Source: an uncultured Gammaproteobacteria bacterium
GTDB lineage: Bacteria > Patescibacteriota > Microgenomatia > UBA10105 > UBA927
Direction of reading: 5' to 3'
Length of the DNA: 31,450 nucleotides
NCBI GenBank assembly: GCA_964355865.1
Contig: CAYHFH010000001.1
Location: 6,184-37,633, forward strand
The notes beneath the pieces are model-generated. The model was not told the origin of the DNA and ran no database searches. It saw nothing but the letters and a program-made list of their open reading frames with translations. Of the stretch, positions 368 through 30,864 are shown one piece after another. Position numbers and translations under genes: made by a program. Position 1 is the first letter of the stretch; every line of letters begins with the position of its first letter.

Positions 368-3210
368 ACAATTTCATCAGCAAGCGTTTCTTTTTTTACG
401 CGGTCTACGAATTCTTGAGATAACTCCTTATACTCTTCCGGCACTTGTACGCGGATATGTGCGTTTATTGTACATCCTTTTTCTTTACGGAGAATCTGGA
501 TAGCCCGGACGAGCTGGCGCATACGCCCTTCTGCCACAAGTTCCGGCGTGCTCGTGGTATCAAGCACAACCGTTTGCTCTCCGTCACCGGAAATAATCTT
601 CACTTCTTTTACATTCAATTCCTCTCTGATAAGCTCGACATATTCTTCTTCCAGTTTGTATCTGCTATTTGTTATTTGCACTTTCTGGACCGGTTGCCGG
701 ACCGGAACTGAAGCTGTTTTTCTCTGCGCGTGCCCCGAGGCGCACACATCGCGGACAAATTGCATCTTTTCTTCCAACTCATGTCCCTTGTCGCTCGTCT
801 CCTGTCCCGCGATCGGCCAATCTTTATGATGGATACTGTCGCCTGTATTCATGAGATTTTGATACATTCGTTCGCTTATAAAGGGCGTCATCGGCGCCAT
901 GACGGTCACGAGTGTCGTGAGTACCCATCCATATACCTCCATGGCCTTCATGTCTTCCCGCAGTCGAATCCGGCTACGACGAAGATACCAAGTGGAAATA
1001 TGATCCAAAAATGCCAATACATCACGGCACGCGGCCACCGTATCGTAGGTATCCATATGGTGTGTGACATCGCGGGTGAGGGACTGCGTCAAACCGACAA
1101 GCCAACGATCCAAGACGTGGACGGCCGCGGGCATCTGTGACGGAATCGATGTTTGCCCGCGGTATAGGAGGTAAAATGATGCCAGATTCCAGAGTCTCGA
1201 GATGACATTCTGATATACATCCTTAACTCCCAACTCAGAAAAATTGAGATTCTCTCCCCTCATGACGACGGACTCCATGAGATAAAACCGAAGCGCATCG
1301 ACCCCATATTTTTCAAATAAATGGGTCGGGTCGGGAAAGTTCTTTTTGGATTTACTCATCTTTGTGCCATCCTCGGCCAATATCACCCCATGCGTCAGCG
1401 CATTTTCAAATGTATGCGTGCCAAAAAGTCCAACGGACATAACGTGAAGCGTATAAAACCAGGCACGCGTTTGGGAAATATACTCTACGATAAACTGCGC
1501 AGGGTGAGTCTCTTCAAAGAGTTCTTTGTGATCAAACGGATAATGAAGCGATGCATACGGCATACTTCCCGACTCCACCCAGCAGTCAAATACTTCGGGA
1601 ATCCTCTTGCCCTTTACCGTTTTTCCCTCATCCACCCAAACTTCTATATCATCCAAAAATTCCCGGTGAATGTCCGTAAGTTTCGCAACTTTTTCTGGAT
1701 CCACCGCCCACTTCTTCAATTCTTCAATCGACCCAATGATCCGCTGTTTCGTTTCGACTGAAGACTGAGGACTGAGGACTGAGGACTCCGTTTGGCTTCG
1801 CCACACCGGCATCGGCGTCCCCCAGTACCGTGACCGGGATATATTCCAGTCCGGTGCAGTTTCCAGTCCCTTCCCAAACCGGCCAAGCTTAAGATAATCC
1901 GGATACCAGTTGATGTTTCCGTTTTGTTTGACCATGTCATCTTTCATTTTGGCAATATTGATAAACCACGCCGGCACCGCGCTATAGTAAAGCGGCGTCT
2001 CACAGCGGTAGCAAAATGGATACGAGTGGACAGATTTTTCCGCCCGAAACAAAATGTCCCGGTCAATGAGATCCTGGACGATCCATTCCTCGGCTTTCTT
2101 AAAAAATATCCCCTTGAGGGGCTCCACAAACTCGAGATACCTCCCCTGATCGTCAAGCATCGGGACGAGGGGAAGATCAAGCGTTTGGGCAAATTTATAA
2201 TCATCCTCGCCGTATATGGCCGCTGTATGCACCATTCCCGTCCCTTCCTCAAGGGAGACGAAATCACCCGCACCCACATAGAAGGCCTTTTTACCATCTA
2301 ATGGAAGAAACGGATAGAGCGGCTCATACTCCCGTCCCACAAGCTTTTCCCCGAGGACTTTTTCTAAAATTTTTACTTCCCAATTCTCTTCCTGTGTGAC
2401 ACTGGCAACCCGTTTTTCCGCTACCCAAATCAATTTATCGCCCACGGATACTTTCACATACGTGGCTTTGGGGTGCACAGCAAGAGCGACGTTACCGATG
2501 AGCGTCCAGGGGGTCGTCGTCCACGCGACAAAGTATTCATTCTCCGTGCCCTTCACGCGAAACATGACGAACACTGAATGATCTTCTACATCTTTGTAGC
2601 TATTGTCCATGGCGATCTCAAAGTTCGATAGGGGGGTTGCGCACCGGGGACAGTAGAGGATTATCTTGCGGCCTTCATAGAGGAGCCCTTTGTCACTCAA
2701 TTTTTTAAACGCCCACCAGATGGATTCCATGTAGGGCTTATCCATCGTTTTATAGGAATGAGCAAAGTCCACCCATCGCCCGATCCTTCTGATCACTTTT
2801 TCCCATTCTTTATCAAAACGAAGAATGGCGGATCTGCACGCCGCATTAAACTTTCCGATTCCCATTTCCTCGATTCCTTTTTTCCCGCCCTTGAGTTCGA
2901 GCTCCTTTTCGATCATGTTCTCAATCGGTATCCCATGGCAATCCCATCCCCACACGCGGTCTACGCGATACCCCTTCATCGTCCAGTAACGCGGGATTGC
3001 GTCTTTGATGACCGAGGTGAGGATATGGCCATAATGCGGCAGGCCTGTCGCAAACGGCGGCCCGTCGTAAAATACGTACCGTTTATTTTCAGGCCGCATC
3101 GAGACGGACTTTTCAAACGCTTTCGTCTCGTCCCAATACTCCAAAACCTCATGCTCAAGCTTGGCAAGGTCTACTTTTTCCTGCGGATTTTTTATCGTAA
3201 GGGATATCAT
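316..3210 (-). CDS. ileS: Isoleucine--tRNA ligase, type 2 (archaeal/eukaryote-like)
   Basis: YDGPPFATGLPHYGH (HIGH), GWDCHGIPIE, WTTTPWTL, GTGMVH, DWNISRSRYWGTP and KMSKS motifs. No C-terminal Zn finger of type 1. ATG at 3210 preferred over GTG at 3219 because TATAAT lies only 3 nt upstream of the GTG. Confidence 0.97.
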   Translation of the reverse strand: MISLTIKNPQEKVDLAKLEHEVLEYWDETKAFEKSVSMRPENKRYVFYDGPPFATGLPHYGHILTSVIKDAIPRYWTMKGYRVDRVWGWDCHGIPIENMIEKELELKGGKKGIEEMGIGKFNAACRSAILRFDKEWEKVIRRIGRWVDFAHSYKTMDKPYMESIWWAFKKLSDKGLLYEGRKIILYCPRCATPLSNFEIAMDNSYKDVEDHSVFVMFRVKGTENEYFVAWTTTPWTLIGNVALAVHPKATYVKVSVGDKLIWVAEKRVASVTQEENWEVKILEKVLGEKLVGREYEPLYPFLPLDGKKAFYVGAGDFVSLEEGTGMVHTAAIYGEDDYKFAQTLDLPLVPMLDDQGRYLEFVEPLKGIFFKKAEEWIVQDLIDRDILFRAEKSVHSYPFCYRCETPLYYSAVPAWFINIAKMKDDMVKQNGNINWYPDYLKLGRFGKGLETAPDWNISRSRYWGTPMPVWRSQTESSVLSPQSSVETKQRIIGSIEELKKWAVDPEKVAKLTDIHREFLDDIEVWVDEGKTVKGKRIPEVFDCWVESGSMPYASLHYPFDHKELFEETHPAQFIVEYISQTRAWFYTLHVMSVGLFGTHTFENALTHGVILAEDGTKMSKSKKNFPDPTHLFEKYGVDALRFYLMESVVMRGENLNFSELGVKDVYQNVISRLWNLASFYLLYRGQTSIPSQMPAAVHVLDRWLVGLTQSLTRDVTHHMDTYDTVAACRDVLAFLDHISTWYLRRSRIRLREDMKAMEVYGWVLTTLVTVMAPMTPFISERMYQNLMNTGDSIHHKDWPIAGQETSDKGHELEEKMQFVRDVCASGHAQRKTASVPVRQPVQKVQITNSRYKLEEEYVELIREELNVKEVKIISGDGEQTVVLDTTSTPELVAEGRMRQLVRAIQILRKEKGCTINAHIRVQVPEEYKELSQEFVDRVKKETLADEIVWGNSLTLLTGSISSSS
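658..678 (-). repeat. Degenerate heptamer tandem (CAAATAA CAAATAG CAGATAC) inside ileS
   Basis: Three 7-nt units seen directly; encodes QITNSRY. Confidence 0.4.
780..807 (+). repeat. Degenerate heptamer tandem (CATGTCC CTTGTCG CTCGTCT CCTGTCC) inside ileS
   Basis: Four 7-nt units sharing CnnGTCn; encodes GQETSDKGH on the minus strand. Confidence 0.4.
1756..1787 (+). repeat. Heptamer tandem repeat GACTGAG x~4.5 inside ileS
   Basis: GACTGAA GACTGAG GACTGAG GACTGAG GACT; encodes SVLSPQSSV in IleRS. Confidence 0.9.
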
Positions 3211-3215
3211 TACTG

Positions 3216-29672: not shown

Positions 29673-29965
29673 TAGGGTTGCAGATGAAACGCGACATCGT
29701 CTCGACCTATGGTAACGATTGTTGGAGGGGTAATGAGTCCCAAGGAATGGGATTTTTCTTCAACAACAAGAAGCGATGAGAGAGAAGCAACTTTTTCCTG
29801 TAGTAGCTGATTTTCTTCCTTCACGACATCGATCGACCGGTCCGTGACGGATACTTTTTTACCAAATCCAGCAAGTTCATTCGTGACCAATAGTTCGACC
29901 ACAAGGAGAAGTACAACGAGCAATGGTAGCATGTGTATTCCGAAACGTGCGATACGTACTATCAT
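29672..29965 (-). CDS. ftsL: FtsL-like small bitopic cell division protein
   Basis: 97 aa with one TM and a coiled-coil (EENQLLQEKVASLSS..VEEKSHSLGL), in the canonical position between rsmH and ftsI. Confidence 0.75.
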   Translation of the reverse strand: MIVRIARFGIHMLPLLVVLLLVVELLVTNELAGFGKKVSVTDRSIDVVKEENQLLQEKVASLSSLLVVEEKSHSLGLITPPTIVTIGRDDVAFHLQP

Positions 29966-30864
29966 AGTTTTTCCCCTATCCGTAACTTGGCGCTTCTGGA
30001 CCGTGAATTCACCCGTAATTCCGTTTCGCTTGGCGTTATAGGGCGCTTATTCACTGATCGAAAACCAAGACGAATACATTCTCTTTTCACTATCCGGTCT
30101 TCAAGCGAATGATAACTCAGGACGACTAACCTGCCACCGGACCCGAGCACTGCTTTCGCCTGACCGATCCCGTCCCTTAATGCGTCAAGCTCATCGTTGA
30201 CCACTATACGAAGTGCCTGAAAAATCCGCGCATATGTCCCTGTCTTTTCCATCGGATTGGTCACCGCTTGGGCAATCACCCGCATCAAATCTCCGGTTGT
30301 TTTGACCGGCGTTATACGACGGGCGCGGACAACAAGACCAGCAATTGTCCGAGCCAACTTTTCTTCACCATATGTTGCAAATATTTCATAAAGTTCCTCT
30401 TCCGATAATTTTTTTATCACTTCCCAAGCCGGCATTCCTTCCTCCGGGTTCATCCGTAAATCCAACGGGGCCATATCAAAACGGTAACTAAATCCCCGTC
30501 CGGGTGTATCTATCTGATGACTGGATACCCCCAGATCAAACAGAATCCCATCCGCATGATCAAATCCATTCTCTTCCGCAATTTTTTTTATACTTCGAAA
30601 ATTCCCTTGCACAAGTGTCCAAATGCCTAATGGTTCGTCTTCCCGTCTTCCTATCTGACTGTCTTCCATCTTTTGCTTTGCAAACAGTAACGCTTCACGA
30701 TCCTCATCAATACCAAGTAATCTGCCACCGCGCCGGATTATTTCCAGTCCATGTCCTCCGCCGCCTATCGTCGCGTCTATATACATCCCACCTGGCCGCA
30801 CCGAAAGTCCATTCATGACTTCCTCAACCATGACCGGTGTATGAAATTGGATATCGTTTCCCAT
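29962..30864 (-). CDS. rsmH: 16S rRNA m4C1402 methyltransferase RsmH (MraW)
   Basis: HTPVM, DATIGGGGH, FDLGVSS.Q, PLDLRM, FQALRIVVN.EL, SYHSLEDR and N.RSRSAKLR. Start placed at MGNDIQ (30864). Confidence 0.97.
   Translation of the reverse strand: MGNDIQFHTPVMVEEVMNGLSVRPGGMYIDATIGGGGHGLEIIRRGGRLLGIDEDREALLFAKQKMEDSQIGRREDEPLGIWTLVQGNFRSIKKIAEENGFDHADGILFDLGVSSHQIDTPGRGFSYRFDMAPLDLRMNPEEGMPAWEVIKKLSEEELYEIFATYGEEKLARTIAGLVVRARRITPVKTTGDLMRVIAQAVTNPMEKTGTYARIFQALRIVVNDELDALRDGIGQAKAVLGSGGRLVVLSYHSLEDRIVKRECIRLGFRSVNKRPITPSETELRVNSRSRSAKLRIGEKL
30634..30670 (+). repeat. Degenerate 7-8-nt tandem (TTCCCGTC-like) inside rsmH
   Basis: TTCGTC TTCCCGTC TTCCTATC TGACTGTC TTCCATC; encodes MEDSQIGRREDE. 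Confidence 0.4.

Follow-up and report, generated by a model that had tools for sequence, protein, structure and literature searches.

How do short repeats come to lie in frame within essential genes, and is one activity responsible for them all? The question is raised by a 31,450-nt stretch of DNA (positions 6,184 to 37,633 of contig CAYHFH010000001.1, here C1; hereafter the window) from assembly GCA_964355865.1 (here G000). In it the initial annotation, made from the letters alone, had listed up to eight repeat or palindrome patches in five genes, and had proposed that one mechanism, such as the HUH activity of a transposase of the repetitive extragenic palindromic (REP) sequence-associated tyrosine transposase (RAYT) type, seeds heptamer arrays and hairpins alike. 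Six of the eight patches (three in ileS and one each in degT, murF and rsmH, the last made of octamers) proved to be repeat-derived, while the two in DUF2079 hold no significant repeat; the host reading frames are intact at every patch, as had been claimed. The explanation that we favour, with slightly better than even confidence, is that the patches represent a clade-wide pool of very small DNA-level repeats, tandem arrays and palindromes, of which the coding frame filters the survivors. The repeats are of two kinds, namely short tandem arrays, mostly of 7-nt units and typically 25 or 31-32 nt long, with recurrent unit families, and GC-rich palindromes of 25-36 nt. Both kinds are found between genes as well as within them, and within genes they occur only in stop-free orientation, at frame-keeping lengths and in insertion-tolerant loops.

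The excess of arrays in the whole assembly was strongly confirmed. Tandem Repeats Finder (TRF) gave 184, 105 and 174 rows with periods of 7, 8 and 9 nt in G000, as against 22, 23 and 24 in a Markov-3 simulation. With a stringent detector 46 heptamer, 5 octamer and 9 nonamer arrays were retained, and genome-wide there were none with a period of 5, 6, 10 or 11. The 46 heptamer arrays compare with 6.3 after codon shuffling, a residue that represents the intergenic arrays left untouched by the shuffling, and with 0 in the Markov simulation, which bears out the suspicion of a genome-wide repeat system. Of 177 period-7 TRF clusters, 135 lie within open reading frame (ORF) calls, and the intragenic excess holds against codon shuffling. 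Array lengths peak at 25 and 31-32 nt, inside and outside genes alike. The units form recurrent families (AAAAGTC, AATTAYG, AGCTRTC, AATATCC and AAGTCCT), and 24 unit classes are represented among the 38 intragenic arrays. When these classes are read on the sense strand of their ORFs, 19 of the 24 are free of stop codons as tandem repeats and the reverse complement contains a stop in 19, while arrays of stop-containing units carry substitutions precisely at the would-be stop positions. Inverted pairs of the same unit make up 12 of the 46 neighbouring array pairs (1.7% expected), and long hairpins result.

The arrays extend beyond this assembly. The AAAAGTC family is found at many loci with the same ends, and its arrays occur in 36% of 251 genomes of the class, in a census whose reversed-pattern control was not clean, the reversed pattern being itself a plausible heptamer array. 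These arrays are extremely dense in two class relatives of one genus, G163 and G117, with 125 and 90 matches to the AAAAGTC pattern in genomes of approximately 0.8 Mb. Several relatives of similar size and GC content are nearly array-free.

Inside the window (all patches there lie on the minus strand) each gene was scanned at lag 7 and compared with 200 shuffles of its codons and 200 synonymous shuffles. Three patches, ileS site 1, degT and murF, exceeded these controls, where 0.01-0.08 arrays are expected, and nothing above expectation was seen at other periods in the same scan. The ileS site 1 array (1756-1788; TRF 1756-1787, score 57) consists of 4.6 copies of CAGTCCT, encodes ESSVLSPQSSV and is flanked by the conserved motifs PMPVW and IIGS. 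Site 2 (778-807, encoding GQETSDKGHE) and site 3 (654-681, encoding VQITNSRYK) are degenerate period-7 stretches with xGACxxG units and units ending in CAAA, respectively. Alignment of 12 IleRS orthologues nevertheless showed all three patches to be heptamer sites, one of them clean and two degenerate in G000; other genera have perfect arrays of different units at these sites, or no insert. At site 2 a member of another genus (G014) carries 4.5 perfect copies of AAGAGTC and the congener G003 has AAGACTC-type units, and at site 3 we found 4.5 copies of AATTACG in a genome of a different family (G020), AGCTGTC in G008 and AAATGTC or AAATTTC in G014. The degenerate array of G000 at site 3 is common to its congeners G001 and G003. 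Sites 2 and 3 are thus recognisable as heptamer sites only because orthologues hold perfect arrays there.

Even within the genus site 1 is occupied by three different units, CAGTCCT in G000, AGGACTC in G003 and CAGATAA in G001, between flanks that are near-identical in all three. The AGGACTC of G003 is approximately the reverse complement of the G000 unit, with the TGA-forming base altered. At site 2 small indels that compensate for one another (781-813) were seen in a metagenome contig of a diverged relative. Judging from such orthologous loops, which carry different units or none, the turnover of the repeats is quick. Among the contigs of four groundwater runs are several unrelated ones whose match is confined to the ileS array at 1756-1787, with both flanks divergent, so the array must be present at other loci or in other organisms of the community, which inflates the local depth.

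The murF patch is a composite (19569-19632) in which 2.6 copies of AAAAGTC (19615-19632) are followed by a 30-nt double hairpin (19585-19614) and then by another 2.1 copies of AAAAGTC (19569-19584; TRF 19570-19584). Heptamer units thus stand on either side of the palindrome, as described from the letters, and this is the sole patch in the window with a significant fold (z = -3.2). The first stem-loop of the hairpin is TCCGCC-AAA-GGCGGA, and the element is read as SAKGGPAYGQ. In an alignment of the G000 protein with 119 homologues, the insert is missing from 33 of the 120 sequences; most of the others have 11-13 extra residues with a 7-residue periodicity and varied sequence, and a few have the hairpin. 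At 85% identity, the closest homologue is 16 residues shorter and lacks the hairpin-encoded residues together with two heptamer-encoded blocks, a difference that we interpret as three heptamer units (21 nt) and the 30-nt hairpin. In an AlphaFold2 model of MurF with a mean predicted local distance difference test (pLDDT) score of 92, the only segment below 50 comprises residues 279-290 and lies within the insert, so the expected mapping of the repeats to disordered loops is seen here. The inserts are hydrophilic loops, rich in Ser, Lys and Gln as had been proposed.

In degT the patch (18302-18335; TRF 18302-18329) consists of four AAAGTTR units and encodes SPKLKVESKKL. G000 has heptamers only at this site, whereas G001 and G003 have AAAAGTC units together with the 30-nt double hairpin, which implies either precise loss of the hairpin or its repeated gain. 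That the degT and murF arrays, or any of the others, are products of assembly or binning has a negligible probability in our view: G000 is fragmented into 147 contigs and repeats can cause misassembly, but independent Logan contigs from other samples and from another study span both arrays with zero differences, and orthologous arrays are found in many independently assembled genomes.

The 30-nt double hairpin is a dispersed element in its own right. Its 21-nt core is present in 2 copies in G000 and in 7, 6 and 10 copies in the three congeners, and it was found in 21 of 61 relatives, with 0 in the reversed control. All 25 copies inspected sit at the boundary of a heptamer unit. The 20 congener copies inspected, as well as those of G000 and the degT copy of G001, are placed between ...AAGTC and AAAAGT..., often with several units on either side, and the copies in G020 are placed between AACTACG or AACTGCA units, showing that the hairpin sits at heptamer boundaries whatever the unit. 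Across genes it is read in three sense frames, two of them in MurF orthologues (PPKADKPMAG and SAKGGPAYGQ). Since different genes read it in different frames, the hairpin is a DNA element and not a peptide module, and the repeats in general behave as fast-changing DNA elements, not as selected peptides.

For a comparison of protein lengths we used the congener G001, which is syntenic over 33 kb with 26 of 28 genes matched. Internal indels of at least 5 residues are limited to ileS, DUF2079, degT, murF, murB and rsmH, and the patches align with these indels and with gaps in the MurF alignment, as the initial annotation had anticipated. At the DNA level most of the indels correspond to a heptamer or octamer array, the 30-nt hairpin or another small GC hairpin in one of the two genomes. 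The rsmH array (30635-30666), a degenerate 8-nt repeat with four copies of GAAGACGR, lies at an 11-residue insertion relative to G001. MurB of G001 has a 25-residue insertion, aligned to position approximately 24350 of the window, that opens with an 8-bp GC hairpin (GCCGCATC-AAAA-GATGCGGC) and is missing from G000. The two DUF2079 patches are of another nature. At 4323-4379 there are 15 residues that are absent from G001 and G003, with a weak 6-bp inverted repeat only, and at 3435-3461 the protein is 5 residues longer than in G001-G003, with no significant repeat or hairpin. Neither folds better than shuffled sequences (z = -0.85 and +1.2, respectively), and both were therefore discarded as repeat or hairpin elements and remain lineage-specific indels. 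The insert at the second site (DPSTP...CGHAG) is common to G000 and G014 and not to G001-G003, and is tandemly duplicated in G014, a distribution that suggests recombination or an ancestral polymorphism.

Palindromes are in strong excess as well: G000 holds 52 perfect hairpins with a stem of at least 10, compared with 2 in simulation. They form dispersed families of 7-15 copies each, for instance AGCTTCGCAAGGCC-W-..., AGCCTCAAGGCC-N-... and TGACAGGGCC-W-..., some of them arranged as inverted doublets like those of REPINs, and they open with paired (T)AGC...GCT(A) or TGACAGGG and have perfect stems. With the stem limit set to at least 9, 43 of 69 hairpins lie within crude ORF calls, for example in dinB and in a GT4 glycosyltransferase gene. 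Within a gene for a DinB-type polymerase, the part that encodes the catalytic IMS domain contains, in frame, a perfect 25-nt palindrome of the TGACAGGGCC family (C6:16402-16426, locus L241).

In a profile search with PF01797, G000 proved to have five Y1 genes, and 52 of 61 relatives also gave matches. The G000 proteins have approximately 200-230 residues with visible HUH and YxxxNP motifs, and belong to a large Patescibacteria family whose members are labelled "RayT" in some sources and "transposase" in others. The Y1 score was 56.5 bits against Pfam Y1_Tnp (cut-off 23) and 65.5 bits against NCBIfam REP_Tyr_transpos, which is below the cut-off of 80 and far above the 18 bits for the IS200 model; a PDB sequence search with a RAYT-like protein gave no match. 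RAYT-like Y1 genes of G000 are located outside the window at C16:8765-9421, C104:2536-3225 and C67:971-1666. When 31 RAYT-like loci from nine genomes were inspected, 26 had a word of at least 12 nt common to their upstream and downstream 150-nt flanks, and 16 also held the flank word in frame, usually 9-20 residues after the YxxxNP motif with the catalytic tyrosine. Every RAYT-like paralogue is paired with a different, private palindrome. In G000 and at the G001 loci L223-L231 a first palindrome precedes the gene, a second overlaps or follows its stop codon, and in many cases there is a third, in frame, inside it. From this arrangement we infer that the palindromes and the Y1 genes constitute a REPtron-like system, in which RAYT-like Y1 HUH enzymes would act on the REP/REPIN-like palindromes that flank their genes. 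The suggested role of RAYT-type enzymes is to that extent upheld, and the 30-nt hairpin does tie a palindrome to the arrays; the predicted co-occurrence of these enzymes with arrays turned out to be modest, as detailed below.

Does the same enzyme also make the arrays? A single REP/RAYT-type HUH activity could in principle generate hairpins and arrays together, for example through insertion and excision cycles that leave heptamer footprints. The location of every inspected copy of the 30-nt hairpin at a unit boundary would fit, as would the likeness of the inverted array pairs to REPIN doublets. In sampled stretches from 26 relatives, Y1-positive genomes (n=17) yielded 35 arrays in 1221 kb, with at least one array in 12 of the 17, and Y1-negative genomes (n=9) yielded 1 array in 633 kb. 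Among 250 class members of at least 90% completeness, for which the AAAAGTC unit alone was used, arrays were found in 68 of 157 (43%) Y1-positive and in 21 of 93 (23%) Y1-negative genomes. This is a modest association (odds ratio 2.6, p = 0.001, kinship ignored), and the difference fades at higher copy thresholds. Array-dense genomes without a Y1 match exist, namely G163 (with its 125 matches and 96% completeness), G282 (16) and G174 (11). In G000 itself 4 arrays lie within 10 nt of a hairpin when 3.6 are expected, so arrays and hairpins are not generally close, and the regions up to 1.5 kb from the RAYT-like genes yielded no array. Nor was a RAYT-like gene found adjoining the copies of the 30-nt hairpin in G020, G016, G036 and G003, the nearest being approximately 2 kb away in G003. 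We also know of no described HUH enzyme that produces tandem heptamers, which counts against such a model. We therefore consider a common origin of both repeat types from one mechanism unlikely, and that part of the original proposal is not supported in the form given. Because of the modest Y1 association, the Y1-negative array-rich genomes and the lack of general proximity, palindromes and arrays are treated here as two classes, the arrays as a second class resembling the short tandemly repeated repetitive (STRR) sequences and separate from the REPtron-like palindromes, and the two would interact through the arrays as landing sites for at least one hairpin.

A further possibility is purely local slippage. 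Arrays would have grown in place from chance seeds, the recurrence of units would reflect composition or peptide tolerance, and the hairpins would be unrelated. The many unit classes among the intragenic arrays speak for this, as do the orthologous sites, which vary in unit and little in length, and the over-representation of heptamer simple-sequence repeats in many bacteria (PMC4692102). It is hard to reconcile with one unit family found at many loci with the same ends and in over a third of the class genomes, with the clustering of lengths around two values, with the strong excess of inverted pairs, with a conserved 30-nt element that is confined to arrays, or with the near-absence of arrays from several relatives of like size and GC content. 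We rate it as rather improbable. About equally doubtful is the possibility that an active process on single-stranded DNA, employing a RAYT-like HUH enzyme or some other partner, makes the arrays by placing blocks of approximately three units at defined junctions, and that it supplies landing pads for hairpins; this would amount to a clade-wide engine that repeatedly rewrites surface loops of essential CPR (Candidate Phyla Radiation) proteins.

Selection for the encoded peptides, either as flexible linkers or disordered regions, as has been proposed for Borg repeats, or as phase-variable switches, is very improbable. The inserts are indeed hydrophilic, and the gain or loss of one 7-nt unit would shift the frame, but identical repeat DNA occupies different reading frames and is found between genes too, the hosts are essential housekeeping genes, and the insert is missing from many close homologues. 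No frameshifted alleles were seen in the contigs of the four runs, where rare variants stay hidden, and the units of Borg repeats inside ORFs are divisible by three (PMC9879509).

Our preferred explanation, a population of small DNA-level repeats filtered by the coding frame, places the origin of the arrays in slippage or template switching on single-stranded DNA, through which they would most likely arise and be re-homogenised, accompanied by copying between arrays of the same unit. The 30-nt double hairpin would land at the boundaries of heptamer units, and the coding frame would then select what stays visible. The Y1 enzyme may assist in the formation of arrays and would not be required for it. 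Several observations weigh against this explanation. The near-chance proximity of arrays and hairpins and the modest Y1 association have been given above. No copy-number variation was seen in the assembled contigs of the four runs, which hide rare variants. The preference for 25 and 31-32 nt is shared by the few intergenic arrays, so simple slippage combined with a frame filter is insufficient, and the dominance of period 7 is not accounted for.

How do these elements compare with known systems? Heptamer repeats are known from Xanthomonas and Nostoc, where they lie chiefly between genes, are scarcer than expected in coding regions and tend to have four units (PMC4692102). Like these and the cyanobacterial STRR sequences, the arrays described here consist of tandem 7-nt units, are dispersed, favour about four copies and belong to a few unit families; they differ in lying mostly in frame within ORFs, in having unrelated units that are not G-rich, and in their CPR host. 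Mazel in 1990 and Elhai in 2008 are reported to have described the cyanobacterial STRR arrays and the small dispersed repeats (SDR) of Nostoc, with very small hairpin-like elements nested in heptamer arrays, and the 30-nt element nested here at unit boundaries resembles these. REP sequences, bacterial interspersed mosaic elements (BIME) or REPINs form REPtrons together with the RAYT (TnpA-REP) genes (PMC3333891, PMC3116915, PMC3733652), and typical REPs have an unpaired GTAG or CGTC at the hairpin foot and a mismatch in the stem (PMC3333891, PMC3733652), some of them being intragenic (PMC3733652). The likeness lies in a Y1 HUH gene bracketed by its own dispersed palindromes of 25-36 nt, some in inverted doublets. 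Unlike in REPtrons, the unpaired tag is absent and the stems are perfect, the families count 7-15 copies, not hundreds, and lie mostly inside ORFs, several paralogous enzyme-palindrome pairs occur per genome with an extra in-frame copy within the enzyme gene, and the enzymes score below the NCBIfam RAYT cut-off.

Rickettsia palindromic elements (RPE) are selfish sequences of approximately 150 bp (about 100-150 bp) that encode one conserved peptide in frame (PMC10969869). They share with our repeats the in-frame location in unrelated housekeeping genes at fold-compatible positions, whereas the elements here measure 21-51 nt, occupy several reading frames and are in part tandem arrays without a palindrome. 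A unit that is not a multiple of three inside a coding sequence also recalls the phase-variable contingency repeats of host-adapted pathogens; the repeats here, however, occupy essential genes, were never out of frame in the orthologues and metagenome contigs inspected, and are found in internal loops and not near the N-terminus. A literature search found no description of heptamer arrays or REPtron-like systems in the CPR. Within the literature on REPINs, RAYTs and REPtrons (PMC3116915, PMC3333891, PMC8266576, PMC6006769), the HUH phylogenomics paper mentions no CPR lineage.

The remaining features of the window concern its origin and gene content. It contains the division and cell wall (dcw) cluster from mraZ to ftsZ, followed by Fic, DUF2079, ileS and rodA, with every gene on the minus strand. 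The assembly comprises 1.06 Mb with 47% GC and 88% completeness, the strain was found in groundwater metagenomes, and the neighbours of its FtsZ and the homologues of its MurF carry the annotation Candidatus Gottesmanbacteria or Patescibacteria; by these affinities G000 is a tiny Gottesmanbacteria-like CPR genome. Two genes, the Fic gene (4802-5875) and a CvpA-CAP fusion gene (16718-17689), are missing from the syntenic 33 kb of G001 and look like lineage-specific insertions into the dcw cluster. The cyanobacterial octamer HIP1 (highly iterated palindrome 1, GCGATCGC) occurs in two copies (19266-19277 and 27255-27266) where approximately 0.5 are expected, which is too few to interpret. An Rfam scan of the window matched no family.

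Within the window the repeats appear to cause most of the protein-length differences between closely related CPR genomes. If this is general, they would confound gene calling, orthology assignment, alignment and assembly, as may be seen in the 147 contigs of G000 and in unrelated contigs that share an array only. They would also serve as a natural map that shows which loops of essential enzymes tolerate insertions. With many enzyme-hairpin pairs and one hairpin that targets heptamer boundaries, the system would, if general, be a tractable one for asking why bacteria over-represent heptanucleotide repeats and what makes them.

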